IMG/VR virus record: IMGVR_UViG_3300034069_002177
Location: 46,907-110,906 of that record
Direction: 5' to 3' (one strand)
DNA length: 64,000 nt
DNA from: a virus
The notes under the pieces were generated by a model. That model was given only the letters and a program-made list of their open reading frames with translations, was not told the origin of the DNA and searched no databases. The translations under genes were made by a program, and so were the position numbers. This document shows positions 2,930 to 59,587 of the stretch, one piece after another. How positions within the stretch are numbered: position 1 is the stretch's first letter; every line of letters begins with the position of its first letter.

Positions 2930-3745
2930 GTGGGGACACGTAAAGACGAAATCAAGCAGAAGGCGCAAGCAACTCGTGATGCGCAGAAGAAAAAAGAGAA
3001 GCGCTCTCGATTAGCCTTCCAAGGCGGTATTGCCGGTGTGATCCTCGCGGCTGTTGTCGTTGTCGTCTTAGTCGTTCTGGGGTCTAGTAGTGCACAGGCG
3101 GGTACTCCTGGAAATATGTTTAGCGGCGGTGTCCAGTTCAAGAATTCAAGTCTGACGCCAGTGTCAAGTCCAGCTTCCGATAAGTTCGCTATCAAGACTC
3201 CACCACTGCCTAAGGACAAGGTGGACGTGAGTATTTATATCGACTACCAGTGCCCGTTCTGTAACGATTTCGAGAAGGCATATGGAGACAATTTGCAGTC
3301 TCTGGCAGCATCTGGGAAAATTGACCTCGCATATCACCCCATTGCTATTCTTGATCGTTCTTCATCTGGAACCAAGTATTCGACTCGTGCAGCGGGAGCC
3401 AGTGCATGCGTAGCTGAGTCTGCTCCTTCGCAGTGGCTTGCATTCAACAAGCTGATGTTCGCCAATCAGCCTGCCGAAGGTGGTACTGGTCTTGAGAACG
3501 ATAGGATCATCAGTATTACTAAGGAAGCAAAAGTAGACAATGCTGACACCATCAGCAAGTGCATTACAGACAAGAAGTACGACGGTTGGGCAACCAAGGT
3601 GACCGCCGCTGCGAGCAAGAACCTGCCGCACACCAATGCAGGTCTTGCTGCTACGCCGTCTATTGTTGTCGATGGCAAGCTTTACGCTCAGGCTGACGGA
3701 GACTTCAGCGCTTACCTGAACAAGCTCATTGCCGCGAAGAGCTAA
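2930..3745 (+). CDS. DsbA-family thioredoxin-fold protein
   Basis: TM anchor, DYQCPFC active site, ATPS cis-Pro loop; GGAGG before GTG 2930. Confidence 0.9.
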   Translation: MGTRKDEIKQKAQATRDAQKKKEKRSRLAFQGGIAGVILAAVVVVVLVVLGSSSAQAGTPGNMFSGGVQFKNSSLTPVSSPASDKFAIKTPPLPKDKVDVSIYIDYQCPFCNDFEKAYGDNLQSLAASGKIDLAYHPIAILDRSSSGTKYSTRAAGASACVAESAPSQWLAFNKLMFANQPAEGGTGLENDRIISITKEAKVDNADTISKCITDKKYDGWATKVTAAASKNLPHTNAGLAATPSIVVDGKLYAQADGDFSAYLNKLIAAKS

Positions 3746-4395
3746 CCCGCAATACGCTTAGCGTTGTCAATAGTAGAATCTTCCTGTTCAACTCCACCTT
3801 GGTTGATGAGCAGGAAGATTTCTGCTTCTTGCTCAATGGTTTCGACACTCGCCTCCATTGTAGGAAGAACGGTTGTGTGGCGGAAGCTACGCTGAAAACC
3901 TTCACTGAGGTCGCTGTACTTGACCATTTCTTCTTCGGATGAACTTTGTGATTCGTCGAACCACTCATTGGGTACCTCCAAGCGGTCTTCCATGAAGTCA
4001 AGTACAGCTTCGATACGCTGTTTGCCGTCTACGACAGCACCATAGTGGTCACTGCCGAACGGTCGTTTGTTCAGAATTACCGAGCCGGTGGGAATGCCTA
4101 GCAAAAGTGAACGAATGAGACCCTGCTTGTGTGCGGTATCCCAGACGGATCCGCGCTGATAAGGAGCATCAAAGTCGTATTGATCACGCGCAGAGAGCCA
4201 ATGTCCTACCGTATAGGAGGCGGAATCCATGCGGAGCTTTTCCAAAGGCTTGCGTTCGATCTTGGAAGCCTTCGGAGGCGCACCGACAGCAGCAGACCTA
4301 TCCGCAGTGGAACCGGAGTTCTTATCAGGGTTCACTTTGCGAGAGGTGACAATGCCGTTTTTATCAACGATTGGCTTATTAACGAGGTTGCTCAT
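3742..4395 (-). CDS. DUF262 (ParB-like/GmrS-type) protein with DKNG leader
   Basis: YQRGSVW, LIRSLLLGIP, VVDGKQR motifs; N-terminus IVDKNG. Confidence 0.85.
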   Translation of the reverse strand: MSNLVNKPIVDKNGIVTSRKVNPDKNSGSTADRSAAVGAPPKASKIERKPLEKLRMDSASYTVGHWLSARDQYDFDAPYQRGSVWDTAHKQGLIRSLLLGIPTGSVILNKRPFGSDHYGAVVDGKQRIEAVLDFMEDRLEVPNEWFDESQSSSEEEMVKYSDLSEGFQRSFRHTTVLPTMEASVETIEQEAEIFLLINQGGVEQEDSTIDNAKRIAG

Positions 4396-4401
4396 ATCTC
4401 T

Positions 4402-4423
4402 ATTATGCCAGATGCGTCCGATC
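4402..4423 (-). promoter_or_regulatory. PafBC-like promoter variant, probably leaderless
   Basis: GATCG-N11-CATAAT, 6 nt before ATG 4395. Confidence 0.45.
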
Positions 4424-4671
4424 TAACGAACTGTAAGCTCGGACAGAGCGAAATCAGCCTGTCGCATACCGGAGCGCAGCGCAACATGCGTCACACCCTG
4501 ACGAGCCAGCTTGGCAGCCCACGACCTGGAGATACGCTTGTTGTAGCTCTGTCGCACCCAACCCTTGTCCGGGTGGAACTCGGATACGACAGTCGGATGA
4601 AGAGCGAAATCGCGGACGGCATCACCAAAGTATTTAAGGGCAGCAGCCGGAACCTTTGCAGAGAATCCCAT
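4423..4671 (-). CDS. hypothetical protein
   Basis: 82-aa ORF co-oriented with the DUF262 gene, AG-rich RBS. Confidence 0.55.
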   Translation of the reverse strand: MGFSAKVPAAALKYFGDAVRDFALHPTVVSEFHPDKGWVRQSYNKRISRSWAAKLARQGVTHVALRSGMRQADFALSELTVR

Positions 4672-4804
4672 GATGATTAGCTTTCTGATTACAGTGAGTG
4701 TTTCAAGTCAATTATTACGATACTACTTATTTGTTCTGATGTCAATTTGATTTGTGAAGTTTGTCCTGATATCTTGTGGACTGCACAACAAGGAGCACAC
4801 AGTA

Positions 4805-5731
4805 ATGCGAAAACTAGCAGTCAAGCTCACAGCCTTCGACCTGCTTCATTGGGTTAACGAACACACCGTCAGCAATGACATCTTTGAACAGGCTATCGTC
4901 CGCAATACCCTCATCAACCTTCTGGATCTTTACGACCACTGGTGTAAAGACGAGACAACTTGTGATGTGTGCCAACGCCCCGAGGGTGCCTTCGTTAGAA
5001 ATCGTGAGTCCGAACTTGAATATCATGCCGAAGCAATTTTCGAGAGCAACCGTAAGTTCGCAGAGTTGAAGACGCGGCTAGATAAAACCAATTTTGACAT
5101 CAGTTCTTTGTACTCCGCCTTCATCACCCCCGAGAGCGATACCGTTATTCGAGCCGTCGCGCACCGTGGAGTGATTAGTGACTTCGGTGAGATGCATTAC
5201 ACCCGACGAGGATCTGTTGCAACTCTTGGTTCGAATCACCCTGTCGTTATTCAAGGCGAAGAATTTGGAAAGACGGCTTTTGACGGCTCTCTCACCTTGA
5301 CGGTGTTTCTTGATACCGATCACCTTTCCGAAAGTTGGACCGTCGAAAATACGCTTGCAGCTAATGAGCTTGTGACATTCACCTCTGATTCACTGAGTTC
5401 AATGCGAGTGGGCGACATCGAAATACCCACTAACGTGGAAAGGGTTGAAGAAGAAGTCTTCGCCCTCGGCGGGATTCTGGAAGACGAACGTGACATAGTT
5501 CGTTTGGAACGTCACAAGGTTATCAACGCTACTCGTTCGCACCCTGTATTAGGTAGGTTGGCTAACGGGGATGACGTATGGCAGATTGTCAGCGATGGTG
5601 CTGGTAGGACAATCAACGATGCCATGCGGACCATTTTGGCATCTAAGGGCGATCCTTCGTTGACCACTGAAGAGGCGATCAAATTAGCTTCGATTGTTTT
5701 CTCGAAACGAGGCATCAAGCAGTACGTTTGA
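4805..5731 (+). CDS. hypothetical protein
   Basis: AAGGAG RBS before ATG 4805; long ORF. Confidence 0.75.
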   Translation: MRKLAVKLTAFDLLHWVNEHTVSNDIFEQAIVRNTLINLLDLYDHWCKDETTCDVCQRPEGAFVRNRESELEYHAEAIFESNRKFAELKTRLDKTNFDISSLYSAFITPESDTVIRAVAHRGVISDFGEMHYTRRGSVATLGSNHPVVIQGEEFGKTAFDGSLTLTVFLDTDHLSESWTVENTLAANELVTFTSDSLSSMRVGDIEIPTNVERVEEEVFALGGILEDERDIVRLERHKVINATRSHPVLGRLANGDDVWQIVSDGAGRTINDAMRTILASKGDPSLTTEEAIKLASIVFSKRGIKQYV

Positions 5732-20607: not shown

Positions 20608-20637
20608 TTGACAACATCGGTTTCGTTGGTGTACAGT
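20608..20637 (+). promoter_or_regulatory. internal sigma-A-type promoter
   Basis: TTGACA-N18-TACAGT. Confidence 0.65.
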
Positions 20638-20667
20638 TATGGAACAAGACAACAGAGAAAAAGATAT

Positions 20668-20749
20668 GCCCCTGTGGCGGAATTGGCAGACGCGCTCGAC
20701 TCAAAATCGAGTTCTTCACGGAGTATCGGTTCAAGTCCGATTAGGGGTA
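20668..20749 (+). tRNA. tRNA-Leu(CAA)
   Basis: CTCGA-CT CAA AA-TCGAG. Confidence 0.95.
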
Positions 20750-20793
20750 CAGGTTGTAGGCTGAAAATAACCAGCATAGTCAGAAGCCTATAT

Positions 20794-20867
20794 GCTCTCG
20801 TAGCCCAATCGGCAGAGGCGGTTGACTTAAAATCAATACAGTGTGGGTTCAAGTCCCACCGAGAGTA
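20794..20867 (+). tRNA. tRNA-Leu(TAA), short variable arm
   Basis: GTTGA-CT TAA AA-TCAAT. Confidence 0.9.
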
Positions 20868-20910
20868 CGCAACACAAGCAATAGAACAAATCCCATTAAT
20901 TAACACACCA

Positions 20911-20983
20911 CGGGGTGTGGCGCAGTTGGTAGCGCGCCCGTTTTGGGGGCGGGAGGTCGCAAGTTCGAATCTTGTCACCCCGA
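20911..20983 (+). tRNA. tRNA-Pro(TGG)
   Basis: CCCGT-TT TGG GG-GCGGG. Confidence 0.95.
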
Positions 20984-21036
20984 CGTAACAATGCATTACA
21001 CTAACAAGTAACGCAAGCAACAAAAGCAACACGTAT

Positions 21037-21109
21037 TCCTCGATAGCTCAATTGGCAGAGCATCGCACTGTTAATGCGACGGTTCTTGGTTCGAGTCCAA
21101 GTCGGGGAG
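21037..21109 (+). tRNA. tRNA-Asn(GTT)
   Basis: TCGCA-CT GTT AA-TGCGA. Confidence 0.95.
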
Positions 21110-21269
21110 CTAGGCGGTAGGGTCGCCTCTACACGTCGATTACGACAAACATCATGCAACAGTGCGTAGCACGCGCTTTCGCCCAATGGGCGGACGACCG
21201 CCTCTACTAGCCGCATGGTCATAAAGTCGAAATCATTAGTACGGTGCATCCGCGCCTACCGCCCATGTT

Positions 21270-21436
21270 TTCCTTGAAGCACACTGGCAGTGCGCGCCTA
21301 CATAGTAGGTCTTAAGAGATGGAGGTTCGAATCCTCCCAGCCGCCCTCGTGACGGCTGTAGTTCAATTCGTAGATTGGTAGAACAGACCGACATAGCCGG
21401 TAACAAAGAATGTGGGTTCAAATCCCACCAAGGAAT
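21270..21436 (+). ncRNA. tandem double tRNA-like RNA with swapped acceptor strands
   Basis: two D/anticodon/T sets; TTCCTTG pairs CAAGGAA, CAGCCG pairs CGGCTG. Confidence 0.65.
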
Positions 21437-21618
21437 CGAAACAACATCTAGCAGCATGGTCAGGAAGATGACTTGGATGTTGTTGTATCGAGGTATGAAT
21501 GAACCCGCGTAGCGAACCATTCCCATCTTCACCTATTCTTTCCTCGTAAGAGGCGGTGTTTCCTAAATCCCTCGGGATGGACGGACTCAGGGCTTTCCGT
21601 AAAGTTTCGTCCACCAAA

Positions 21619-22007
21619 GGGGATGACTTGGATTCGACTGATTGATACAGGCGAAAAGAAGCGTGCCGTGGGTTGTCTGGCGACTACGTAAATTACACCA
21701 GGCAAAAAGAAATGCAAACGCATCTCGCAACGACTTCGCACTCGCAGCCTAACCGCTACGAGGCTTAATGGAGTCTGTCTCAGCTTCCAATGCAGAATGA
21801 TTCACGGCAGGAACTAGGCATCAGCAAAGAGGAATCCGATGCGTCACCTAACTACTGGGTGGCAAGCAGCGTAATCATGGTAGATAGACGATAACGAGCC
21901 GGTGTCCATACCAACTCGTTGCAGTCGATAACCGCCCCAAATGGACTACGCACGTAGAAGGTTTCGGTTTATCAAGCAACACGCGGGTTCGATTCCCGCC
22001 ATCTCCA
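21619..22007 (+). ncRNA. ssrA: tmRNA, tag ANASRNDFALAA (21714-21752)
   Basis: GGGGATG..GGATTCGAC 5' end, GCGGGTTCGATTCCCGCCATCTCCA 3' end, G3-U70, tag ending ALAA-stop. Confidence 0.95.
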
Positions 22008-22013
22008 CGACCA

Positions 22014-22088
22014 CTCACGAGAAGTACCGGCTCGATACCGGCATGATCCACCATATGGGTCATCTGCATGGCAACAGACTACGTGGGA
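22014..22088 (+). ncRNA. circularly permuted tRNA-like domain with Ala identity
   Basis: T-arm, ATGATCC-ACCA, TAT, GGGTCAT; G3-U70 and A73. Confidence 0.5.
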
Positions 22089-22203
22089 GCACATATTTAG
22101 GTGAGAGTCCTTAGTCCAGACCGGGAGGGTATGACCGGGAGAGGGTGAAAGCCCCTAGGTGCCGCCTAACGTGGACGGCACCGCACAAACTTACAAGTAC
22201 GAG

Positions 22204-22233
22204 TTGACAGAAGCCATTTCTGCCTGTCATACT
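22204..22233 (+). promoter_or_regulatory. internal sigma-A-type promoter
   Basis: TTGACA-N18-CATACT. Confidence 0.55.
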
Positions 22234-22254
22234 GAATGAACAGCAACACAATAT

Positions 22255-22343
22255 GGAGTGGTCGCATAGTCCGGCTTAGTGCAGCAGTCTTGAAAACTGC
22301 CGTGGCGTTAAAACCACCGTGGGTTCAAATCCCACCCGCTCCG
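22255..22343 (+). tRNA. tRNA-Ser(TGA)
   Basis: GCAGT-CT TGA AA-ACTGC; long variable arm. Confidence 0.95.
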
Positions 22344-22386
22344 CGAAGGTTATAGGGTAGACATACCCGTTCCCTTTCACAATCAA

Positions 22387-22550
22387 AAGATGGCGTGTGG
22401 CGCAATTTGGCTGACGCAGTGGACTAGTACCTAACCCCTACGACTGGTGAGTTGTAATGGCATGGACGGAATCCACCGGAAATAGGGAGGCATTGGAAAC
22501 GATGTCCCACCCGAGGTTCCTTGCAGGTTCGAGTCCTGTCACGTTGTCTT
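22387..22550 (+). ncRNA. expanded tRNA-like RNA with insert in the anticodon loop
   Basis: 11-bp acceptor-like stem, D-arm, GTGGA/TCCAC enclosing ~48 nt, T-arm GCAGG-TTCGAGT-CCTGT. Confidence 0.55.
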
Positions 22551-22563
22551 CGATTGTGCCTTC

Positions 22564-22636
22564 GGGTTTTTAGCTCATCTGGTAGAGCGCTGCTTTTGCA
22601 AGGCAGAGGTGAGGGGTTCAAGTCCCCTAAGATCCA
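22564..22636 (+). tRNA. tRNA-Ala(TGC)
   Basis: TT TGC AA loop; G3-U70. Confidence 0.95.
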
Positions 22637-22764
22637 CGAGTCAAAGAAACTTCGGTTTTGATTTGACTTAGATAGAAATTGTCTGGTAGTGTTGTGATAA
22701 CAACAACGGAACTTGAAAAGACAACAGTGGAAATACAAGCTCAACGAAATTGGTTGAGCGAAAT

Positions 22765-22851
22765 GGAGCCGTCGCATAGTGGCCTAGTGCACCACCCTGC
22801 TAAGGTGGAGTACCCGCAAGGGTACCGTGGGTTCAAATCCCACCGGCTCCG
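22765..22851 (+). tRNA. tRNA-Ser(GCT)
   Basis: CCACC-CT GCT AA-GGTGG. Confidence 0.95.
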
Positions 22852-23045
22852 CAAAGACCGAATGAGTAACCCCTGGTACGGGTAAAAATTCAGTCCTCGC
22901 TCAAATCAGCATCATCGATGCGGCTTCCAGCCGTGAAGTTGGAAAGTACATCGAGGGTGGTACCACTGAAACGAGCAATTGCCTTGGATGACTCAATAGG
23001 GGTGCGAAATGACATAAGTCATGAGCTTCACTGAATAGGCATTAT

Positions 23046-23132
23046 GGAACCGTCGCATAGTGGTCTAGTGCACCACCTTGGAAAGGTGGCATACCTGCAA
23101 GGGTATCGAGAGTTCGAATCTCTCCGGTTCCG
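23046..23132 (+). tRNA. tRNA-Ser(GGA)
   Basis: CCACC-TT GGA AA-GGTGG. Confidence 0.95.
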
Positions 23133-23331
23133 CGTTGTCGTCTTCCAAGCGACAATCCCGACAAACCTGGGTGAAGGGTTGTTCAATGATGGCTAAGAAC
23201 TAAAACCGAGCCATTGTGTATTTTCTTCATTCTTGCACTGACTAGAATGTTGCGGTTGATCCCGTTAGGAAATCTACGGAACGGCTTCGGTTGTTTCGGG
23301 TCGTTAGGGTTTGATCACCCTTTCGACGCAT

Positions 23332-23405
23332 GCCTCGCTAGCTCAATTGGCAGTAGCATCTGACTCTTAATCAGAGGGTTCCCGGTTCAAGTCCGGGGCG
23401 AGGCA
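23332..23405 (+). tRNA. tRNA-Lys(CTT)
   Basis: TCTGA-CT CTT AA-TCAGA. Confidence 0.95.
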
Positions 23406-23839
23406 CAAAGTATCTTCGGATACTTGCAGTAAGACAAGGCTTCCATGTACGCCGCAAGGTATGTAGAGAAATCGCTTCGCATGGGTGAGTCTTACTGAGA
23501 ACGTAGAGATGCGATTAGAGGCGTTCTTTCCACACTTGTACACCGGATCGGTCCTAGGAGCCTATCGTCACAGACGGCACATCCGAGGGAGGGGTTGATG
23601 AACCCTTGTACGTATACATCGTCGCTTCAAGCACAGCCTCTGTGAGGAACTGTTGCCAGTTCGGACGTAACCCGAACGCTCGTAAGTTCACAGCCTATGT
23701 AGAGGGGCTGGTGGGGCGCAATCCCATTGCGGTTATGAAAAGCCGAAAACTTGCAGCATTTTCGTCATGTGCGGGGTTCAATTCCCCAAGGGCGTCGGCT
23801 CAAACCCGGCGCGGTTGGATTCATTACCGTGGCGAATAT

Positions 23840-23913
23840 GGTGGGCGTAGCTCAGTTGGTAGAGCGCTGGCTTGTGGAGCCGGATGTCGCGGGTTCGAGC
23901 CCCGTCGTTCACC
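23840..23913 (+). tRNA. tRNA-His(GTG)
   Basis: CTGGC-TT GTG GA-GCCGG; G-1:C73. Confidence 0.95.
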
Positions 23914-24088
23914 CGAATTACGTTCTGATTCAGATACCAAAAAGGAATCAGAAAGTCATCGAACAGCTTGGTATCTCTGTTGTGGATGGTGTGAAGTCGT
24001 ATCGAGTCATCTTTTGCGTCGGCAGGCGTTGATGACAGGTGATGCATTCCGAAAGGAACTGCCCGTCGATAGCTTCACATAAGTTTTT

Positions 24089-24179
24089 GGAGGGGTCGCA
24101 TAGTCCGGCTTAGTGCAGCAGTTTCGAAAGCTGCCGTAGGTGTCACATCCTACCGTGGGTTCAAATCCCACCCTCTCCG
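24089..24179 (+). tRNA. tRNA-Ser(CGA)
   Basis: GCAGT-TT CGA AA-GCTGC. Confidence 0.95.
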
Positions 24180-24289
24180 CAATAGAGTTCAAGCAGCCCT
24201 GATTACCAGGAAGCATAAGATGACACTTGGACCTAGATTTCTTCATCGACTAGCAGATTCGTTCTGACTTGTCAGATGAAGTAAGTAAT

Positions 24290-24369
24290 GCCCGATTGGT
24301 GGAATTGGCAGACACGCTGGCTTTAGGTGCCAGTGCTTAGGCGTGAGAGTTCAAGTCTCTCATCGGGTA
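24290..24369 (+). tRNA. tRNA-Leu(TAG)
   Basis: CTGGC-TT TAG GT-GCCAG. Confidence 0.95.
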
Positions 24370-24515
24370 CGCACGGATTCACAAGACGACTGGTGCAATG
24401 GTCGTTGCATAGTGCCTTGTTGTGATGATGTTGCCGGTTGGATCGGTATTGCACAATTGCCCCCCAACAAATCAGGTCCACCGAACGTCGTGATGACAGT
24501 GCGGTGGGCTTCTGA

Positions 24516-24900: not shown

Positions 24901-24916
24901 CGTTTCTTGTTGGTAC

Positions 24917-24946: not shown

Positions 24947-24961
24947 GATAGTAGTAAATAT

Positions 24962-38644: not shown

Positions 38645-38666
38645 TGTCGGATGACTGCGTTAGACT
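38645..38666 (+). promoter_or_regulatory. PafBC/RecA-NDp-like promoter
   Basis: TGTCGG-N10-TAGACT. Confidence 0.7.
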
Positions 38667-38686: not shown

Positions 38687-39295
38687 ATGTCCGACCGCTC
38701 TCACCTCATTCGTGACACTACCGTCGATGTCAATGGACACCCTAAAACGGTGTATCGCAAACCGGGCGACCCCGCGCCAACGAACAACAGCCGCTCCGGT
38801 GGTATCGGCGCTCCGATTTCTTCACGACTTGTCAAGGTGGTTCCTGACCACTCGCAAGAGTTCCCTATCGCGGCAGATAAGTTCGATTCTCGTTGGGCTG
38901 AAACTAATCGTGTGAAGTACGCTGATGATTACATCAACGAATTCCAAGCGTGGAATGGCTGGAACGATTACAACCCAAACGGCACCCTCAACGCTCAGTC
39001 TGGTGATGATGGCATACTCTACTTCGTGGAGCCTCATACTGGCGATTTGGTTCTCACTGGTACGCCTGGTGAATTTTACATTGCAGCCATTTCATCGCCA
39101 CCAGTTGTCGAGCCCATCGAGTCCGGCTACAAGATCACGTACGTATCAACCGATTATGCAGAGGATGACAACCACCTCACCACCTTCAATATTGACGCTA
39201 AGGGTGACTACACCGGAGAACCGGGTACGCTCGACACGTTCGGTAGTAACCTTGATGCAGAAAGCGCTCTCGGTGTTCTGCGTGGAGAGAACTAA
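38687..39295 (+). CDS. hypothetical protein with DVNG leader
   Basis: AAGGAG RBS; TVDVNGHPKTVYRK. Confidence 0.8.
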   Translation: MSDRSHLIRDTTVDVNGHPKTVYRKPGDPAPTNNSRSGGIGAPISSRLVKVVPDHSQEFPIAADKFDSRWAETNRVKYADDYINEFQAWNGWNDYNPNGTLNAQSGDDGILYFVEPHTGDLVLTGTPGEFYIAAISSPPVVEPIESGYKITYVSTDYAEDDNHLTTFNIDAKGDYTGEPGTLDTFGSNLDAESALGVLRGEN

Positions 39296-44551: not shown

Positions 44552-45295
44552 TCAGTCCGCAAACAAATCAAAAAGTTCTTTCGGAGCAATGTCAAGTTTG
44601 TTGGGAACATCATCGATATCTGAGATGAGCAGTCCATCAAGTTTCCGTTTGTATTCGACGATGGTCTTAGCCTTAGCCTTTTCGGCATCTGTTGCTTGTC
44701 GCCAGGACGACTCATACTTACTGGTCGGCTTCACGGGACGCTTAGTAGTCCATTTGGCATAGATGAGCTTTTTGTCGGTTTCGGCGCGAGTGTGTTGAGC
44801 CGTGAGTCCTCCTTTGTTGTGGACTTTGGTATTACCCTTCGTCTCACCGAGGTAGGTCCAATTGTCAGCCTTATAGAGTGCGCCCTTGCGAGTATCGTTC
44901 TCTACAACGAATGTCTCGAAGCCGATAACCTTGACACCGTAGATGTCCTCCCACAATTGCGCGCACACTTTGCGCCAGAGCGCTAGAACTCGCGTGGCAA
45001 GGTTCTTCTCATGAAACTCTAAACGAAAGACTGTGTTATTGATGATTGCCGGTAGGTAGTAGCTCTGTTTGATCTCTTTGTCTTTGGGAATGCCGAAGAA
45101 TGTATCTCTTGCACCTACGCCGTAGACCGATGATGCACCGGAGATGATACCTACGACTTTTCCGTTGTAGTGAATGATGAAGTGAAGTTGCTGACCGTGC
45201 GTACCGTTGTTTTCGACGTAATGACGATTGCGAATTTCTTGATAGCGCTCGTCAGTTCGCTTGACGCATTCGAGCGCGATTTCTTCATTACTCAC
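44552..45295 (-). CDS. DUF4338 (DruA/Mom-related) protein
   Basis: ARD..INNTVFRL, NLATRVL, FETFV, GALYKADNWTYLGETKG. Confidence 0.75.
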   Translation of the reverse strand: MSNEEIALECVKRTDERYQEIRNRHYVENNGTHGQQLHFIIHYNGKVVGIISGASSVYGVGARDTFFGIPKDKEIKQSYYLPAIINNTVFRLEFHEKNLATRVLALWRKVCAQLWEDIYGVKVIGFETFVVENDTRKGALYKADNWTYLGETKGNTKVHNKGGLTAQHTRAETDKKLIYAKWTTKRPVKPTSKYESSWRQATDAEKAKAKTIVEYKRKLDGLLISDIDDVPNKLDIAPKELFDLFAD

Positions 45296-45539: not shown

Positions 45540-46073
45540 ATGGTCATGCGCGGAGTAATTGTTTTGAACGGGAACAACGAGCCACTTGGTGTCGTGTCTG
45601 TCCGTCGTGCGGTCGGCTATGTTGTGGCTGATCGAGTTGATATCATCGAGGACACCGATGACGACTTCTTCCGCTCTGCTGGAAACAAGCTCGTGAAGGT
45701 ACCTCGGGTAGTTCGCTTCAAGGACGCCGTGGATGTTCCTACACGGTTCAACGAAATGAACTGGTCTCGTACTAAGATGCTCGACCGCGACCTCTACACC
45801 TGTGGCTACTGCGGCAAGTGGGGTAACACCGTGGACCACATTATGCCTCAGTCTCGTGGCGGAAAGTACACCTGGATGAACACCATCACGGCGTGCCACA
45901 AGTGCAACAACCGCAAGGCTGACCGCACCCCTGAAGAGGCTGGTATGGAGCTTTTGTTCCAGCCCAAGCTTGTCTACCGAACCGACACTCTGCTGCTCGC
46001 TATGGCTGCGACAGGTGCCGACTTGGAGCGTTTGGGTTTTGACACCCCTACGCCTCGAATGGTGGAAGCCTAG
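45540..46073 (+). CDS. HNH endonuclease (paralogue of 36787..37284)
   Basis: VLNGNNEPL, RDLYTCGYCG, TVDHIMPQSRGG, ACHKCNNRK. Confidence 0.95.
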   Translation: MVMRGVIVLNGNNEPLGVVSVRRAVGYVVADRVDIIEDTDDDFFRSAGNKLVKVPRVVRFKDAVDVPTRFNEMNWSRTKMLDRDLYTCGYCGKWGNTVDHIMPQSRGGKYTWMNTITACHKCNNRKADRTPEEAGMELLFQPKLVYRTDTLLLAMAATGADLERLGFDTPTPRMVEA

Positions 46074-46188: not shown

Positions 46189-46662
46189 ATGTCAGCAGTT
46201 GTAAGTACCCCCATCGTAGATAAGAACGGTAAGCAGACTACGGTCAAAAAGAAGGTTGGTGAGGCTCCCAAGCCTTTCGCCCGTCCTATCCCATTCCCTA
46301 TCTCACGACCACAGCAGGCATCGCCTGAGCAAAGAAACAAGGACGCAGTACGAGATCTTCTTACCCGCCTTTCGGTAGGAGACAGCAGCACCATCGCTGA
46401 CTCGGATGTCAAGGAAGTAAGCACGAGTATTTACTCGGTCACCAGCGGCAAGACCAAGTTCGTTGCATTCGACAACATTCAGGTCTCTGATGAAATCGTT
46501 TCCGGTATTGTCACCATTGACGACGGAAAAGTCGGTGGAAGCCTTTACCTCGGTAACGGTACCAGCAGCCAGACTGATTCGAGGGGTTACGCTCTTCGTT
46601 CTTCCAATGCCGCTGTTGAAACTCAGCTAGATGCAGCAAAGATTGCGTTGCCTTACCTCTAA
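46189..46662 (+). CDS. hypothetical protein with DKNG leader
   Basis: GAAAGG RBS; PIVDKNGKQTTVKKK. Confidence 0.8.
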   Translation: MSAVVSTPIVDKNGKQTTVKKKVGEAPKPFARPIPFPISRPQQASPEQRNKDAVRDLLTRLSVGDSSTIADSDVKEVSTSIYSVTSGKTKFVAFDNIQVSDEIVSGIVTIDDGKVGGSLYLGNGTSSQTDSRGYALRSSNAAVETQLDAAKIALPYL

Positions 46663-47214: not shown

Positions 47215-47236
47215 TGTCGCCGCCTACGGCTATGAT
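47215..47236 (+). promoter_or_regulatory. PafBC/RecA-NDp-like promoter
   Basis: TGTCG-N11-TATGAT. Confidence 0.65.
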
Positions 47237-47259: not shown

Positions 47260-48345
47260 ATGGTATCCACGAACACGCGACCAGAGTCCATTGTTGACAA
47301 AAACGGTGTCGCGACTACTCGACACAAGAAGCTAGACAATGGAACTTCTACTAAGCGCAGCGGTGGCGCACCCGCCCCCAAACTTGCTGCTGGACAGAAC
47401 TCCCGTCCGTTTGCTAACGACACTCCAGCCGAGGTTGATGTTCCGCTTGCTGAGATTTATGGAAAGATTGCTTCCGAACGTGGAGCAATCAACCACGCCC
47501 GTTCCCAGATTGAAAATTATACGCGCCTTGTCGAAACCGAGATTGCCAAGGAAGCCAAGCGCGGTGTCGAAAATGGAAACGGTGGCTATTACGCTGATTC
47601 GTACCGTAACACCATCGGCAAGTTGCAACAAACCGTCAAAGAACATGAACCGCTTCTTGCCGAAGCTATCGAAGAAGCTGAGCCGTACGAAGATGAATTT
47701 GCCGCTCGCGGAGGATGGAGTCGCTTCTATCAGGTAAGTAACTCAAATGGTCACGTTCACCGCAGTATGAATTGCTCGACGTGTTACCCCACGACGGAGT
47801 TCTACTGGCATGCAGAGCGCTCCGGTTCTACTGACGCCGAAATTGTTGATGATGCCGGTGAGGACGCTTGTACCGTTTGCTTCCCCGACGCGCCCGTAGA
47901 AACACTATCCCGTCCTGGCAAGATGGAAACTCCTGATCGCACCAAGCAGCGTGAAGAGCGTGAAGCCCGCGCCGCGAAGAAGATCGCCGCAGATGCTGCC
48001 AAGGTTGCTAAGTCCATCACCAACCCAGACGGCTCGCCTCTTCGTCTCGGTAAATATGACCTTATCAAGACAGAACGAGCAGCGGAAATGGATTTTGTTG
48101 ATACAGCGCTCTACGCATACGCATACATCGACCCTGAAGAAGAAGGGTTCCGTAGAAACACCTGGCGCGATGAACAAGTCGAGAAGATGAGGCTTCTTTC
48201 GGCTGCGTTGGCTGCTAAGCGTGGAGTATCGCATGAAGAAATTTCTGAGTCCCTCAAGGCAAAGGCAGTCGGTAGGCTGAAGCGCGAGAACAAAGATCTC
48301 ATTGAGAAGTTCGAGCGTAATTTCAAGCCTTCCGATTTCGAGTGA
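47260..48345 (+). CDS. Cys/His-motif protein with DKNG leader
   Basis: SIVDKNGVATTRHK; GHVHRSMNCSTC...ACTVCFP. Confidence 0.85.
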   Translation: MVSTNTRPESIVDKNGVATTRHKKLDNGTSTKRSGGAPAPKLAAGQNSRPFANDTPAEVDVPLAEIYGKIASERGAINHARSQIENYTRLVETEIAKEAKRGVENGNGGYYADSYRNTIGKLQQTVKEHEPLLAEAIEEAEPYEDEFAARGGWSRFYQVSNSNGHVHRSMNCSTCYPTTEFYWHAERSGSTDAEIVDDAGEDACTVCFPDAPVETLSRPGKMETPDRTKQREEREARAAKKIAADAAKVAKSITNPDGSPLRLGKYDLIKTERAAEMDFVDTALYAYAYIDPEEEGFRRNTWRDEQVEKMRLLSAALAAKRGVSHEEISESLKAKAVGRLKRENKDLIEKFERNFKPSDFE

Positions 48346-48382: not shown

Positions 48383-49174
48383 TTGGAGCACCACTACATG
48401 GATGCCATCGGCTTTTTCGGTTTCGAAATTGACGGTGACGTAAAACTGGCTAACGTTGAGTCTTCATACGAAGCATTCGCACCCCACTATCTTGACTGGA
48501 TACGTGAGGCGAATCGTGAAGATCTGCTCCGCATGGTTACAACGTTACAGACCGTTCCAAATAATGCTGACGATGATGAGATCGCTCAGGCATTCGGCTA
48601 CGCGAGTGCCGAAGACTTTTCCGAAAAGGTGGGAGCCTTCCCGGAAGGTGTACTTGACGAAGCATTGGGCAGCCCCAAGGATATGCTCTATAACGGCGTT
48701 GTCTACGGTACAACCAAGCCATCTGATTTTCGTCATGCTGAGTATGGATATGTCGTCAACCTCACACAAGGAACTTTGGATTGCTACATCGGTAATCAGC
48801 TAGCACCACATGATGAAGGTTTGTTCTTCATGGTTGCTCCGGTCACTGATTCAGGGACTATTGCGGAACACCACCACGTAGATTCAGTCGAAGTTTTTGC
48901 ACCTCGCCTTTACGCTAGTTACGATTGGGATAACCTGCCGTCTAAAGCTGAGTTTCTTGCTAACCACTACCGAGCCTTGATGTTGCAAGAAGACATGAAC
49001 AACTCTGCCATCACGAAAAGTAAGAAGACCAAGAAGAAACGTCATTCTCTTCTTGCGTTCGGAAGGAACAGGCCGGTCCTGGAAGATTCAGTCTGTGGCG
49101 CAATCGTAAAGTCGAATGGCAAGCCTTGTGTTCTTCGTGCAGGGCACGGAGGTAATCACCGATCTCGTATCTAG
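48383..49174 (+). CDS. hypothetical protein with C-terminal C2H2-like motif
   Basis: EYGYVVNL; ends CGAIVKSNGKPCVLRAGHGGNHRSRI. Confidence 0.75.
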   Translation: MEHHYMDAIGFFGFEIDGDVKLANVESSYEAFAPHYLDWIREANREDLLRMVTTLQTVPNNADDDEIAQAFGYASAEDFSEKVGAFPEGVLDEALGSPKDMLYNGVVYGTTKPSDFRHAEYGYVVNLTQGTLDCYIGNQLAPHDEGLFFMVAPVTDSGTIAEHHHVDSVEVFAPRLYASYDWDNLPSKAEFLANHYRALMLQEDMNNSAITKSKKTKKKRHSLLAFGRNRPVLEDSVCGAIVKSNGKPCVLRAGHGGNHRSRI

Positions 49175-50532
49175 GCGGCTACAGGCTGCGCCGTAACGCC
49201 ATTAGCATGGTTAGACACCCACGAGTCCATAGCGTCTTTCAAAGCCGTCCTGATTGATTCCTCGGTACTCTCAGAGGGTTTGATGGCTAGTGCTGCTGTA
49301 TTGAGGAACATCATTAGCTCATCGACGCTACTACGAGCTTCGACCCATTTCTGCAAGTCGTGGGGGATGGTAATAACGATTCGGTTATCGTCTACGGGCT
49401 TTTTCAAAGACTCCCGCGCAATCTCCGTTACTCGTTCCCAGAAACTTTCATTCTGACGAGTGGAACCGGAAGGTGCCTTGGTGAATGAGACCATCGTCTT
49501 GTTTTTGAGAGCGGTTTCATAGTCAAGCCAATGACGAATTACTTTGGGCAGCTTCTCTATTTCTTCGACCTCGCCTGTCTTCTTGTCTTGGATGCCGAAC
49601 TCCAAATTTCCCAATCGAACGATTTCTTGATTCTTAGCCAATGGTATGAAGAACTTAGACAGCTTGGGGTTGGCATTGATGAGCCGAAGGATGTCATGAG
49701 GGTTACGAACGTTGCCGTTGCCATCATCGTCGAGGTCACCATTTTCCTTGAACCACCCATTGTTGAACAGCGAACGAGGGAAACCGTGTTTGTAGGACTT
49801 GGTGAGGTAGCCGCTGACGACATTAGGGTCAAAAATTTCTTGCGCGGATATACCATTCTTACGGGTGGGGCGGGGGAGCTTTTCTGCTACGTGTGTGTCA
49901 ATCCAGCATCTTGCAAAGATATCTTCGACCTTCTTCATAGTGATTGCGGGGACACGAGCGCTGTACAGAATTACGATATTGCTGTGTGGGTTGATACCAG
50001 ATTCGGTGTAGCTGATTTCTGGCATGTGGATAACGCCCGCAATGCTCAGGCGCGTCTTCTCGGCTTGGTTGAGCTTAGAAAGGAACTTAGAGTATGCCTT
50101 GCCTTGTACCTTGATGAGTTCTTCATGGTCGAGGCGAGCGGCGCTACGGCTGGTAGCGACGATGAGTTGTGCTCGACCACCTTCCGCTTGCGTATTCCTG
50201 ATTAGAGCCTCTACCTGTCGCTCAGCGCGCATACCGTGCATCTGACCACAGTTGGGGCATGAAGAACGACCACACACGGACAGCTTGGAAAAGTTGGAAC
50301 TGATGATCTCGCCGGAGGCAGAAAGTGTCACGGTCTGGTCCGAAGTGTTGCCGTTTGAATAACGCTGACAATTACGAATGCGGGTAGAGCTACTGATTCG
50401 TCTCAGAACTTTTCTGGACGCGCTAATCTCGCGCCTGTAATCGGCAAAGGCTACTTTTGGTAGCGAAAGTTGAATGCTCTCGTCCTGAGAATCCTCGGGT
50501 GTGGATGAAGATGTCATCGTTCTGTCGAGCAC
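49171..50532 (-). CDS. divergent rolling-circle Rep (Rep_1-like) protein
   Basis: CGRSSCPNC, EISY..SGINPHSN (degenerate HUH), SGYLTK. Confidence 0.6.
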   Translation of the reverse strand: MLDRTMTSSSTPEDSQDESIQLSLPKVAFADYRREISASRKVLRRISSSTRIRNCQRYSNGNTSDQTVTLSASGEIISSNFSKLSVCGRSSCPNCGQMHGMRAERQVEALIRNTQAEGGRAQLIVATSRSAARLDHEELIKVQGKAYSKFLSKLNQAEKTRLSIAGVIHMPEISYTESGINPHSNIVILYSARVPAITMKKVEDIFARCWIDTHVAEKLPRPTRKNGISAQEIFDPNVVSGYLTKSYKHGFPRSLFNNGWFKENGDLDDDGNGNVRNPHDILRLINANPKLSKFFIPLAKNQEIVRLGNLEFGIQDKKTGEVEEIEKLPKVIRHWLDYETALKNKTMVSFTKAPSGSTRQNESFWERVTEIARESLKKPVDDNRIVITIPHDLQKWVEARSSVDELMMFLNTAALAIKPSESTEESIRTALKDAMDSWVSNHANGVTAQPVAA

Positions 50533-50676: not shown

Positions 50677-52197
50677 CTACGAAGACTGCTTTGTGAGACG
50701 GGTCTGAGCGAACTCGCGTTTTTCTTCGATGCTTTCCAGATCATCGAACGATTTAAGAACCGCTTGCTTGTCTTCTTGGCTCATTTCGGGAGTGAGAGAC
50801 TCTTGGACCATCGACCACACCTTCCATTCAGGGGCTTTACCGGCAGATTCTACGTTCTTAACAGTGGGGCGAATGATAGAGGTCTGCTTGTCATCATTGT
50901 AGGTACTGTGCTCTTTGATGGTGAGCTTGCTGATGTCGATAACTCCGCCTTCCCACACCTCCGGGGGATTGCTGGCACCCCATTTAATCAGATGGTTGTC
51001 TTCGTCTCGGAAAATCATTGTCGTTTTGTCACCGTAGTCGGTGGGATACGTTGCTCGGAACTCCAAAGTAAGCTTCATAGGCTTGATTATTTTGTCTCCC
51101 GGAGTACCAATCCATTCCTGATTGACTGGCGGCTTGCCTTCCTTGGCAATATCGGATGGCTTGTTGTTCTCGCGGTACCATGCAGAAACTGCGGAGGCAG
51201 CTATACCGACATGGCGTGCCTTTACCAACTCCATGTCCGTGTTGTTACCAGAACCAAAGACTGATTTGAGATTATCGATGTAGTCGCTACCGTTGTTTGA
51301 AGTGCTACGGACGTAAGCGATAACATCATCGACCTTTGCGGCGTCATACTTTTTGTCTTTTTCGCTCAGGGCGAGACTGACCTCATCAGCGGTCGCTTTG
51401 GTTGCCATCGTGCTGTTGGCGCGACTGATGTAATTGGCTCCATCATTGGTGAGGTTTAGAGCGACCCCGACAACATCACGAAGAGAGTAAGAAACTCCCG
51501 AATTGCTTCCAAGTGAGGAAGATTCTAGGTCCGAAAGACTGTCTTCAATTTTAGTGTCATTGAGAGTCCAGAGACCTTCGGGTCGAACACCCATGAACAA
51601 TTGCAAGCAGTTGGATCCGATTTGCTTGGTATCACCCTCAGGGTTGGTCACGGTGTAGATCCGTTCGCGGCGGCGGTTGGTGTGGCATTGGTCGCAGTGT
51701 GCGTCTTCAGGAACTTCGAAGTCTGCACCCTTGCCGTAGTAGCTGAGCACATCACCAGCAGGAGTGAATTCGTGTGTAGCGGTGAAGGTCCACTCGCCGT
51801 TGGAAATCGTTGGCTTATTGAGAGTGGCTACGATAACCTCTCGCGAGGTACCATCATTCTCATTGTGAATCACTTTGGATTCGAAACCGTACTCGAATCG
51901 ATCTTCGACACCAGCACGTTCAAGTCGATTATTTGCCATCTTGATAATGTGCTCGAACTTAGCCGAGTTATCTGCGGTGATCGTGTACTCCTGTACAGGA
52001 AGACTTGCTCTATCAAGGTTTTCACCATCCGCGTCAAATGTTTGTTCTAGAACAGCTTCGGCAGCGCGGGGAGGGGTGGCGCTTTTGATACGGTTCTTGA
52101 TGTCTTTCATGTTTGGCTTATCCGTGCTGCGGTGCACGGTGGTTGCCTTACCGTTTTTGTCAACGATAGGTGTGGGAACACGATTGGCGATAGACAT
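50677..52197 (-). CDS. phage-type protein (Zn motif, OB-like C-terminus) with DKNG leader
   Basis: PIVDKNGKATTVHR; CDQCHTNRRR..QIGSNCL; WIGTPGDK. Confidence 0.8.
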   Translation of the reverse strand: MSIANRVPTPIVDKNGKATTVHRSTDKPNMKDIKNRIKSATPPRAAEAVLEQTFDADGENLDRASLPVQEYTITADNSAKFEHIIKMANNRLERAGVEDRFEYGFESKVIHNENDGTSREVIVATLNKPTISNGEWTFTATHEFTPAGDVLSYYGKGADFEVPEDAHCDQCHTNRRRERIYTVTNPEGDTKQIGSNCLQLFMGVRPEGLWTLNDTKIEDSLSDLESSSLGSNSGVSYSLRDVVGVALNLTNDGANYISRANSTMATKATADEVSLALSEKDKKYDAAKVDDVIAYVRSTSNNGSDYIDNLKSVFGSGNNTDMELVKARHVGIAASAVSAWYRENNKPSDIAKEGKPPVNQEWIGTPGDKIIKPMKLTLEFRATYPTDYGDKTTMIFRDEDNHLIKWGASNPPEVWEGGVIDISKLTIKEHSTYNDDKQTSIIRPTVKNVESAGKAPEWKVWSMVQESLTPEMSQEDKQAVLKSFDDLESIEEKREFAQTRLTKQSS

Positions 52198-52223: not shown

Positions 52224-52245
52224 AGGTTACTCCGTACTAGCGACA
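52224..52245 (-). promoter_or_regulatory. PafBC/RecA-NDp-like promoter
   Basis: TGTCG-N11-TAACCT on the minus strand. Confidence 0.65.
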
Positions 52246-52954: not shown

Positions 52955-54076
52955 TTATGCGGCGAGCTTCGGACGACCGACGCTACCACGACGCCAGTTC
53001 GGGAGTGCCTTGTCGAGCTTTGCCACCTTGTCAGACGACAGCTTGCCGTCCTTCAGGTACTTGCGGTTGCGAGTGATCCAGAATCCCATACGACGAACGT
53101 CAGGGTCTTCCGAGGTCGTGGCGGGGAATGAACCGTTCTGCTTGTAGTATTCGGCAGAAGACACCAGAGTGTCTTCCCACGAAGAAACGTTCGTCGGAGC
53201 CTTGATGTCCGCCCAGTTGGGGAGCGTCGAGGTGAATTCCTCCGTACGGCTTTCGAGTTCGCCTGCCGCAGCCTTGCGCTTCTGCTCGAAGAACCAGCGG
53301 GCGAGACGACGCTCGTCATCCTTTTCGGAGTTGACGGACGGAGCGTACTCGTTCTTCTCGAAGAATGCCTTGACGGCGGCGAGGTTGCGGCTCCACTTGC
53401 CGTCGTTACGAGACAGGTCGTTCCATGCAGGAACAGCCTTGTTGAGGCTGGCGGCACGTTCCTCGGTCATCTGACCCTTTCGGAACATACGACGCTGGTT
53501 GTTGAGCCAAGCAGCGAGGCGACGCTCTTCGTCGGACTCACACTCGAAGACCGGCTTGAAGCCGTTGTTATCGAGGAACTTGACGAGAAGTGCGAGGTTC
53601 TCGTCCCATGTCGGGTAGTGCGAGGCACGCGTCTGCTTCTCACGCTGCCACTCGTTCCAGCCCGGAATCTTTTCGTCGAGGATGGCAATGGAATCGAGAG
53701 AGGCTTCGCCGCGACGAGCCTGCGCCTTCTGGTTCGACATCCAGATGGCGAGTTTTCGCTCATCGTCATCATCAGACGATGAGACCGGAGTGCGGTCGCT
53801 CTTGGCGACGAATTCGAGATAGGCGGCGAGGTTGGTTCCGAAGCGGTCCGTCCGGCTACTCGTCTCGCGCCAGTGGGGAAGCTTTGCGTCGAGAAGGGCT
53901 GCACGGTCATCACGCATGTTGCCGGAGCGAAGTCGAACTCGCTGCATCGTGAACCACGACGCCAGGGTTGCTTCCTCGGGAATGGTGGATGACGGGTTGC
54001 GCCCGTTCTTATTGTAGAAATCGCTAACCTCAGCAAGACGATCCTGCCAAAGGTTTTCGCGCTCTTCGTTGTTCAT
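52955..54076 (-). CDS. helicase-associated (HA) domain repeat protein
   Basis: five repeats W..L.....F....P.....E..LA.W...QR...G......L....P.W; AGGAG RBS. Confidence 0.85.
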   Translation of the reverse strand: MNNEERENLWQDRLAEVSDFYNKNGRNPSSTIPEEATLASWFTMQRVRLRSGNMRDDRAALLDAKLPHWRETSSRTDRFGTNLAAYLEFVAKSDRTPVSSSDDDDERKLAIWMSNQKAQARRGEASLDSIAILDEKIPGWNEWQREKQTRASHYPTWDENLALLVKFLDNNGFKPVFECESDEERRLAAWLNNQRRMFRKGQMTEERAASLNKAVPAWNDLSRNDGKWSRNLAAVKAFFEKNEYAPSVNSEKDDERRLARWFFEQKRKAAAGELESRTEEFTSTLPNWADIKAPTNVSSWEDTLVSSAEYYKQNGSFPATTSEDPDVRRMGFWITRNRKYLKDGKLSSDKVAKLDKALPNWRRGSVGRPKLAA

Positions 54077-54239: not shown

Positions 54240-54674
54240 TTAACGAGTTCTGTGGTTGCCCGAGTGACCGCTTTTGAGGATGCAAGGGGCACCAACACTG
54301 TCTACCATAGTGTTGCAGACAGACTTCTCAGTCGCAACGCCCCTGGTAGAGAAGGTAGGAAGCACAGTCTTGATATCAGGCTGCAAGAACTCAGGGGTTT
54401 CCATTGCCGCTTCAAGGCTATCGAAACTTTCTGAGTTGAATTCCCCCGAAGAATTCAAGCGACCCGACTGGTACTTGGCATTGAATTCGGAGGGGTGACG
54501 CGTTACAACGACATTGTACTGCATATCAGGAGAGTAGCTGAGACCAACTACCCGGTCGTCAACAACATCAGCCGTCTCGTAGAGGTACCGCTGTAACGCG
54601 GACCTTCTATTAGCAGGACAAGTGGTGCGGAGGTAGAATTCGGTATCGACATCGGTAAGAGTTGCGGTGGACAT
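54240..54674 (-). CDS. hypothetical protein with C-terminal C2H2-like motif
   Basis: ends CNTMVDSVGAPCILKSGHSGNHRTR; GGAAGG RBS. Confidence 0.75.
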   Translation of the reverse strand: MSTATLTDVDTEFYLRTTCPANRRSALQRYLYETADVVDDRVVGLSYSPDMQYNVVVTRHPSEFNAKYQSGRLNSSGEFNSESFDSLEAAMETPEFLQPDIKTVLPTFSTRGVATEKSVCNTMVDSVGAPCILKSGHSGNHRTR

Positions 54675-58513: not shown

Positions 58514-58576
58514 TTTTCTTTTGCACAAAGTCGGACGGATGTGCTAATGTATCCCAAAGTACAGGAAGGTACGAAG

Positions 58577-58999
58577 ATGACTCTGCTAGTCAATACCAAT
58601 GAACCGACCGGTCAGGCGGATGTTCTCCACCAAAGCCGTGAAAACGATGAAACATCAGTAATGGTGCGAGTCATGGTCCCCGTCAGGCGCGCAAGCCGCT
58701 TCTGGCAGATGCTTCGCGATGAGTCGCTAAGCCAGTTCGCCCCATTCGGAACCTATGAGTCAGAGGATTTCCCCTCGCACCGACTCATGGTTGTTGAATT
58801 CACCGGCAAGCCTCAGGCGGTGAACACCGACCTCGACATGTTCACGAAGTACCACTTCACACCTAAGGTCGTCAGTAATGACTCCGATGCCGTCGCAATT
58901 CCGTCCATCAGCTTCTCCAAAACAAACAAGCTCGACTTCTCGGACCCTGAGTTGGATTTCAACAAGAAAACCAAAGGCTCTTCGAGCGCATTTAGCTAA
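58577..58999 (+). CDS. hypothetical protein
   Basis: GGAAGG RBS; upstream AGTCGG-N10-TAATGT. Confidence 0.7.
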   Translation: MTLLVNTNEPTGQADVLHQSRENDETSVMVRVMVPVRRASRFWQMLRDESLSQFAPFGTYESEDFPSHRLMVVEFTGKPQAVNTDLDMFTKYHFTPKVVSNDSDAVAIPSISFSKTNKLDFSDPELDFNKKTKGSSSAFS

Positions 59000-59078
59000 G
59001 TAGCAAGAAAACAGCCCTCGGTGTATCAGCGCCGAGGGCTGTTTTCTTTTAACCAGAAATTTCGCATTACGTTCTGAG

Positions 59079-59100
59079 CGTCGTGAGGTGTGGCTAGGAT
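59079..59100 (+). promoter_or_regulatory. PafBC-like promoter variant
   Basis: CGTCG-N11-TAGGAT. Confidence 0.55.
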
Positions 59101-59128
59101 TGTCTATAAGCACCGAAAGGCAATCTTG

Positions 59129-59587
59129 ATGTCCGTTGTACAACCAGTTGAAATCATCGATAAGAATGGCAAACGAAACACTGTTCGCAAAAGACTGGAC
59201 TCGTCAACCTCCGGTAGCAAAAGAAATACCACTGTTACTAGCTCTACCAGGGAGGAAGAAAGCTTCGACCACCCCTTCTTCCCCGATGCGGAGGACAAGA
59301 AAACCGTCAAGCTCATTCGCAAAGTTTTCAAAGGAGCATCTGAGTTTCGATTCGAGTTCGAAGTAGAACGCGGCTCGCTGTATGTCATGAATAGGTCGGT
59401 TGTTTTAGAAAGCGGCGACGTGCATTCGGATGATGACAATGACGAAAGCAATCTTTCGCGACTTGATGAGGTTTCGGATCGCTTAGCGGAAATGTACTAC
59501 TCATTGGGTGCATTCGGTTCACAACGTCGCGTACGGGTTGTGAACCAAGAAAGCGAGAGCAGATACATCGCCATCAGACTTGACTGA
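59129..59587 (+). CDS. hypothetical protein with DKNG leader
   Basis: GAAAGG RBS; EIIDKNGKRNTVRKR. Confidence 0.8.
   Translation: MSVVQPVEIIDKNGKRNTVRKRLDSSTSGSKRNTTVTSSTREEESFDHPFFPDAEDKKTVKLIRKVFKGASEFRFEFEVERGSLYVMNRSVVLESGDVHSDDDNDESNLSRLDEVSDRLAEMYYSLGAFGSQRRVRVVNQESESRYIAIRLD

Follow-up and report, generated by a model that had tools for sequence, protein, structure and literature searches.

A portable N-terminal tag and its promoter motif on unrelated proteins of a probable actinobacterial megaplasmid

Why should nine genes with unrelated bodies, spread over one stretch of DNA, begin with the same short peptide? The question is raised by the virus record IMGVR_UViG_3300034069_002177 (202,737 bp), of which positions 46,907–110,906 were analysed as a single stretch of 64,000 nucleotides, referred to here as the window. 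An earlier reading, made from the letters of the window without database searches (the sequence-only reading), had noticed a 'VDKNG..TTV' leader on nine proteins and proposed a beta-hairpin tag for cargo that is packaged into a virion, transferred with DNA in conjugation, or docked on a common scaffold. We find that the tag system is real and undescribed, and that it resembles a portable cargo label combined with an establishment regulon.

The leader was present at all nine starts, with the Asp of its D-x-N-G motif at residue 11–14 in each, and the nine bodies proved mutually unrelated (lowest BLASTP E value 0.086), as had been claimed. When the 174 called genes of the record were searched with one fixed regular expression, 16 matches fell within the first 32 residues (5,568 residues in total) and none in the 48,587 internal residues; 2,000 residue shuffles gave a mean of 0.029 matches and a maximum of 1. 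The whole record holds 19 leaders, all N-terminal, 10 of them outside the window. They scored 27–40 bits, and the next frame 6, with a profile made from those same 19 leaders; a profile of 94 leaders, mostly from other contigs, recovered 18 of the 19. The consensus of the profile matches is roughly M-S-N-L-x-P-T-P-I-V-D-K-N-G-K-x-T-T-V-H-K-K. The R-x(3-6)-P segment said to follow the leader occurs throughout the family, in 123 of 172 linkers compared with 63 in shuffles (maximum 80), its Arg peaking 20–21 residues past the leader Asp, but it is missing from the gene at 59129. The DUF262 (GmrSD_N) label given to the body at 3742 was confirmed, but the other body labels found no match in Pfam. 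The tagged genes of the window, and the promoter motifs taken up below, are as follows (window coordinates).

3742–4395, minus strand: tagged gene, GmrSD_N/DUF262 body; hairpin at about 4330–4386; weak promoter match; the homolog on plasmid pS16 bears another tag
13976–13997, plus strand: PafBC-type promoter motif ahead of 14029, with 14844 next in the same operon
14029–14844, plus strand: tagged gene, body without known family; hairpin at about 14038–14094
14844–15458, plus strand: tagged gene, body without known family; hairpin at about 14862–14918; start overlaps the stop of 14029
16336–16357, plus strand: PafBC-type promoter motif, beginning 28 nucleotides upstream of the ATG; would give a leaderless mRNA
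16364–17383, plus strand: tagged gene; hairpin at about 16379–16435; untagged pS16 homolog of the C-terminal domain
38645–38666, plus strand: PafBC-type promoter motif
38687–39295, plus strand: tagged gene, body without known family; hairpin at about 38705–38761
46189–46662, plus strand: tagged gene; hairpin at about 46198–46254; clear promoter motif not seen
47215–47236, plus strand: PafBC-type promoter motif
47260–48345, plus strand: tagged gene, Cys/His body; hairpin at about 47275–47331; phrog_15500 and phrog_2433 match only past the leader
50677–52197, minus strand: tagged gene, phrog_2319 body from residue 69; hairpin at about 52126–52182; other tag in pS16
52224–52245, minus strand: PafBC-type promoter motif
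59079–59100, plus strand: PafBC-type promoter motif
59129–59587, plus strand: tagged gene; hairpin at about 59138–59194; no R-x-P segment

Is the leader kept as DNA or as protein? Identical residues among the 19 leaders used the same codon in 611 of 1,294 pairs, codon usage alone predicting 569. Synonymous sites have diverged while the residues were kept, which rejects a repeat at the DNA level and shows that the leader is conserved as a protein. Among 30 ortholog pairs the identity was 76% for the leader and 54% for the body; the leader value is biased upward because the partners had been found via their leaders, and the set contains at least one duplicate pair. AlphaFold2, given a 94-sequence alignment, placed strands at residues 6–12 and 18–24, with a predicted local distance difference test score of 93 over residues 11–20 and lower values beyond. 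The leader is thus a portable module at the N-terminus, some 20 residues long and predicted to fold as a beta-hairpin. Profiles, codon test and structure prediction together support the earlier notion that such a module marks a hidden set of otherwise unrelated proteins. The leader carries a net charge of about +3; its hairpin core contains 25.7% Lys and 4.9% Arg and no conserved aromatic residue, and the best-conserved face of the hairpin is made of Ile, Thr and Val.

The same observations bear on a simpler idea, that a promoter-plus-start cassette is copied, or that the site is a recombination hot spot, the peptide itself being functionless. Mild codon bias was indeed seen at leader positions, and 2 near-identical DNA leaders stand on unrelated bodies among 206. 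Moreover, the homologous genes L096/L049 and L069/L053 differ only upstream of the hairpin turn, which suggests two crossovers within the leader that swapped promoters and starts. Neither the retention of residues at diverged synonymous sites nor the higher conservation of leader than body would be expected of a functionless peptide, however, and we consider this idea very improbable.

No sequence match in Pfam, NCBIfam, PHROG or the PDB covers the leader. The NCBIfam scan of the 19 leaders gave a single match at E 0.05, the lowest E value in the PDB sequence search was 0.36 (generic turns), and a search of the ESM Atlas with residues 1–45 returned unnamed clusters only, at values below 0.9 and template-modelling scores below 0.5. 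No common C-terminal motif was found. The leader was also not described among the matches listed in full-text literature searches, which covered mostly non-subscription articles and without supplements (that of PMC5512222 could list such a motif).

How far does the family extend? Searched against 1.84 billion representatives, the leader profile matched 665 proteins at E ≤0.001. The match was N-terminal in 147 of the best 150 (several of these being the record's own), the exceptions being a phage-type protein, a false match to a repetitive sequence and a protein with three copies, one of them N-terminal. A pattern scan of metagenomes gave 162 loci. The 161 examined (one from GTDB) contained 228 distinct leaders, 224 of them at 20 bits or more, and a start codon lay within 30 residues in 221 of the 224. 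These loci are not independent draws, since few assemblies supplied them and their core was prescribed by the pattern. Their 223 bodies formed 136 clusters, a number inflated by truncation at locus edges. Equal occurrence at internal positions or occurrence in host chromosomal proteins, which the sequence-only reading had named as speaking against a tag, was not seen: the record has no internal match, and a search of 401 Actinomycetota genomes at E 1e-5, with up to 17 scored candidates for each genome listed and a positive control recovered, did not find the leader. It is also absent from two related IMG/VR fragments that span transfer and pilus regions, and tblastn of one leader against plasmids found no match, the short query making this a weak test. 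The pattern scan of GTDB gave one internal match, in a Thermoleophilaceae metagenome-assembled genome. In IMG/VR the strict core pattern had 0 matches; a looser pattern had 10 loci, all internal, and a second loose pattern 55, none above 15.2 bits among the matches listed (47 of 55). As the looser matches are internal or at about 15 bits at most, D-K-N-G alone is a generic turn. On the other side, the family is wider than D-K-N-G, because variant hairpin leaders with R-K-D-G, K-N-G-K-Q-F-V-Q and S-N-G-H turns (L093, L051, L073, L066, L039 and L041) share the promoter motif described next. Internal copies of the hairpin are conserved in P0043 and P0158. Two large proteins, L023:219-3302 (G002) and P0170, each have two internal copies of a similar hairpin. 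L023 is a tailed-phage contig with capsid, portal and sheath genes; each copy there lies just past L-E-K-A, in which we take the K-A after L-E to be a prohead-protease site, and a protease-like gene of the contig has 14 such L-E-K-A-type sites.

What would turn the tagged genes on? The motif [TC]GTC[GA]-N11-TA-N3-T begins 28–57 nucleotides upstream of 12 tagged genes. Its count over the whole record (26) is close to chance (11–24), and it is the placement that is distinctive. With a matrix trained on relatives, the motif was found before 12 of the 19 tagged genes of the record and 3 of the 154 others. In the relatives themselves it preceded 142 of 221 tagged genes, a figure that is circular since they are the training set, and 16 of 350 others, several of the latter carrying variant leaders or zinc-knuckle leaders. 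Six of the nine tagged genes of the window have it, and 14844 lies in an operon behind 14029. In the metagenome loci, 41 of the 142 motifs start exactly 28 nucleotides before the ATG, the spacing of a leaderless mRNA. Genes with a Cys/His zinc-knuckle tag are preceded by the motif as well.

The published consensus of PafBC-dependent (RecA-NDp) promoters is tGTCgg(N10)tA(N3)T (PMC8635444). The motif fits it in the GTC triplet, the 10-nucleotide spacer, the TA-N3-T element and the position before the start, while the promoters described there are those of chromosomal DNA-repair genes (PMC8635444, PMC11804915). PafBC is activated by single-stranded DNA (PMC11804915). The motif is likely a PafBC-type promoter that single-stranded DNA would switch on. 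A PafBC/WYL gene found no match among the Pfam-scanned proteins of the record.

As to the cargo, a hydrophobic segment was found in 0 of 174, 1 of 136 and 0 of 18 tagged proteins, compared with 108 of 350 and 45 of 156 controls. The tagged bodies are acidic (-7.3 per 100 residues, compared with -4.1 in controls), and the leader is basic. Most of the proteins are short, with a median of about 235 residues and 512 for the longest complete one in the loci, P0043 being a fused exception. A shared module on unrelated soluble cargo is also what type IV secretion system (T4SS) translocation signals of the XVIPCD or BID kind present. Pfam families on the tagged bodies of the record are ArdC-N/MPTase, DUF7007, CCA-adding enzyme and GmrSD_N; LPD29, ART-PolyVal, NUDIX, HD, DUF7226 and DUF5710 were found among 91 scanned tagged proteins, and 5 of 131 bodies had a family at E 1e-4 (ArdA, Arr-like ART, SprT, LRV, GmrSD_N). 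The few bodies with a family are, by these matches, conflict proteins (ArdC, ArdA, ADP-ribosyltransferases, CCA enzyme). Phage homologs of two window bodies align only past the leader, and Gordonia phage Stormageddon gp21 has the 50677–52197 body without the tag. One tagged protein, L001:17767-18357, has a below-cutoff match to the papain-like fold family PF15645, and related bodies follow 5 metagenome leaders.

What kind of element carries the tags? The record encodes Pol III alpha, DnaB, gyrase, NrdIEF, WhiB and type I-E cas genes, together with PilB/PilT/PilC, a prepilin peptidase, a VirB4-like ATPase (AAA_10, E 1.6e-12) and an FtsK-like ATPase. It has 64 tRNA genes, with an array at window positions 17993–34935, and a transfer–messenger RNA with an actinobacterial-type tag. 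A match to Replic_Relax is weak and below cutoff (E 4e-4). Next to this relaxase-like gene lies one for a 921-residue membrane protein with Walker A and B motifs, which by eye and by position may be the coupling protein. The nearest cultured relatives are circular Curtobacterium plasmids of 546–608 kb, and 42 of 174 record proteins have homologs on one of these, pS16, including the pilus ATPases, pilin and the VirB4-like, coupling-like and relaxase-like proteins. The element looks like an actinobacterial megaplasmid, presumably conjugative.

If, instead, the element were a very large phage or phage-plasmid with its virion genes beyond the 203-kb slice, the tag could be a capsid-targeting signal. 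In IMG/VR the record is listed as a provirus. The contig that holds its proteins measures 654,127 bp, so that the search for virion genes covered 203 of about 654 kb, and a contig from what may be the source run extends beyond the record's left end. The doubled hairpin after L-E-K-A on the tailed-phage contig and the two bodies with phage homologs also point this way. Yet no virion family was found in 171 Pfam-scanned and 83 PHROG-scanned record proteins or in 135 neighbours of the relatives' tagged genes, and the sole terminase-like match was weak and inside the FtsK ATPase domain. The plasmid nature of the closest cultured relatives, the lack of strict-pattern matches in IMG/VR, the untagged Stormageddon gp21 and a promoter of DNA-damage rather than late type count against it too. 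We regard a capsid signal as quite unlikely, and packaging into a virion is the part of the sequence-only reading that is disfavoured.

The cultured relatives were then compared: the Curtobacterium megaplasmids pS16, pCPAA3 and D40 (records NZ_CP126255.1, covering L251-L278, CP018784.1 and NZ_CP126274.1). None of the three has the DKNG tag, and pS16 has only 4 matches to the strict form of the PafBC-type motif. A blind comparison of N-termini in pS16 revealed a different tag, of the approximate form R-x(n)-G-[RKQ]-F-x-x-x-x-[RH]-x(6)-L. Its profile gave 55 matches, of which 46 remained once those lacking an ATG, a single very short open reading frame and three apparently false ones had been removed; pCPAA3 and D40 gave 56 and 41 matches (position within reading frames unchecked). 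This tag is absent from the record and the metagenome loci, and a comparison by hhalign (probability 0.13) shows that the tags are not related to each other. A third Curtobacterium variant starts R-[IL]-K-D-V-x-G-A-G. In pS16 none of the 46 tagged proteins has a hydrophobic segment, compared with 130 of 469 others, and the tagged bodies are again acidic. An upstream word, CCGC[GA][CT]ACA, lies within 45 nucleotides of the start (about 7 before the ATG) in 38 of the 46 tagged genes and in 7 of the 469 others, five of the seven being tag variants by eye. Four of the seven tagged record proteins with a pS16 homolog (GmrSD_N 3742, 50677, DUF7007 and ArdC, its halves in adjacent loci) have one that bears the pS16 tag, whereas untagged record genes have a tagged homolog in 1 of 37 cases, probably a false match. 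Lineage-wide, 8 of 15 distinct targets were tagged, compared with 4 of 30. The design, namely own promoter word, own tag and same cargo class, thus appears from these comparisons to be kept though both sequences differ. Both this exchange of tags and the PafBC-type motif had escaped the sequence-only reading.

This second tag bears on two further explanations. One is that the hairpin is a basic nucleic-acid clip that would hold recipient-made establishment proteins on element DNA, ribosomes or tRNA. The charge of the leader on bodies more acidic than controls, the use of the same promoter by zinc-knuckle-tagged genes, the internal copies retained in P0043 and P0158 and the response of PafBC to single-stranded DNA (PMC11804915) are all compatible with it. 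However, the core favours Lys over Arg without a conserved aromatic and is best conserved at its Ile/Thr/Val face, basic charge is lacking in the pS16 tag region, where the first 40 residues have a median of -2.5 per 100, and tags exclusive to a lineage would be superfluous if the ligand were universal. On balance we doubt the clip, without thinking it far-fetched. The other explanation is that the tag acts as a degron or adaptor site, recognised by the Pup-proteasome, by Clp or by an adaptor or scaffold that the element encodes, and would make toxic establishment proteins short-lived or co-located. An exposed Lys-rich hairpin with a flexible linker would suit this, and pupylation is reported to remove members of the PafBC regulon after recovery (PMC8223512). 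But the pS16 tag has no conserved Lys, internal copies are conserved, and host proteases would be common to the lineages; this explanation seems unlikely to us.

Which reading is then to be preferred? Tentatively, and at somewhat less than even chances, we favour a tag that serves as a lineage-specific docking handle, likely read by a coupling ATPase for co-transfer of proteins with DNA. The reader would be encoded by the element, because exclusive, lineage-specific tags sit on exchanged bodies; the coupling ATPase of the presumed conjugation machine is the most likely partner. What travels together with DNA would be a set of soluble proteins that probably counter defence and take over the host. 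Host PafBC, activated by single-stranded DNA from transfer or damage, may turn the set on; the Ile/Thr/Val face of the hairpin may bind the reader, and the flexible Arg-Pro linker may let the cargo unfold or dangle. New cargo would be gained by copying a resident promoter-plus-tag cassette ahead of a foreign gene.

Several points weigh against this docking handle. Promoter and tag are both absent from the record's transfer, pilus, relaxase and single-stranded-DNA-binding protein genes, and a PafBC promoter suits genes expressed in the recipient once the element has entered, for which an export signal is unnecessary, just as well as it suits export from the donor. No VirD4 model matched in the record, and MOB-suite scores the Curtobacterium plasmids as non-mobilizable. 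Three of the seven pS16 homologs are untagged, and lineage exclusivity could come from the copying of resident cassettes alone. A similar hairpin is internal in proteins of a tailed phage. In the F plasmid, mapped substrate signals are C-terminal or internal (PMC11288057). Finally, 'anti-defence' is extrapolated to the whole set from the small minority of bodies with a known family.

How does the docking handle compare with known systems? Transfer in the form of protein during conjugation has been reported for ArdC and TraC1 (PMC5512222). The polyvalent, ArdC-type escort proteins of Iyer et al. 2017 (PMC5512222), for which a role in early invasion was proposed and some of which are transferred with DNA, overlap with few tagged bodies (ArdC-N/MPTase, LPD29, ART-PolyVal, GNAT-like, HD, NUDIX). 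They carry 2–15 conflict domains in one large polypeptide, whereas the tagged set consists of many small single-domain proteins, each bearing the short tag and mostly with its own promoter. In the establishment regulons EGeRS1 and EGeRS2 of the pLS20 family, scattered genes including ardC likewise share an upstream sequence that differs between related plasmids, but the accessible text (PMC8708921) does not mention a shared protein tag, and the present motif, of 22 bp, is an activator promoter of PafBC type. The XVIPCD of Xanthomonas T4SS effectors (PMC8740702) is likewise one portable module on unrelated cargo, read by a coupling ATPase as we propose here. It differs in being about 120 residues long and C-terminal, in belonging to a Gram-negative killing system and in that binding was shown, and Pfam scans gave the leader no match to it. 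The capsid targeting sequence of phage T4 (PMC9026906) is also a short N-terminal label that loads diverse proteins for delivery; it has 10 residues, is cleaved by the prohead protease and needs a capsid. No capsid, portal or prohead protease was found in the 203-kb record slice, and the present tag occurs internally as well.

Some neighbouring genes of the window may be mentioned. The proteins at 48398–49174 and 54240–54674 end in a similar Cys/His knuckle (C...C-x-L-x-x-G-H-x-G-N-H-R), the counterpart of the N-terminal zinc-knuckle tags. A 453-residue open reading frame with Cys motifs at 49171–50532 (minus strand) matches phrog_11698 and by eye is similar to a rolling-circle Rep. Accessory genes at 44552–45295 (minus), 52955–54076 (minus), 36787–37284 and 45540–46073 encode a DruA/Mom-like protein, a five-repeat HA-domain protein and two paralogous HNH proteins.

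What does the tag mean for these elements? How conjugative elements select the proteins sent with their DNA is ill understood, and a short signal common to several of them is seldom seen. From sequence alone, two unrelated tags with a promoter word apiece delimit complete candidate anti-defence sets: 19 proteins here, 40–56 per Curtobacterium plasmid and at least several hundred families overall, nearly all unannotated. It is possible, though we would not wager on it, that actinobacterial megaplasmids run a general protein delivery in which the conjugation machine is supplied with anti-defence enzymes by dozens of promoter-plus-tag cassettes that can replace one another, with a lineage-specific code and reader and, in this lineage, a PafBC trigger. 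The sister tag resides on plasmids whose host strains are in culture, so that the mechanism can be tested directly; if the tag is an export signal, it would provide a 20-residue handle for protein delivery into Actinobacteria.

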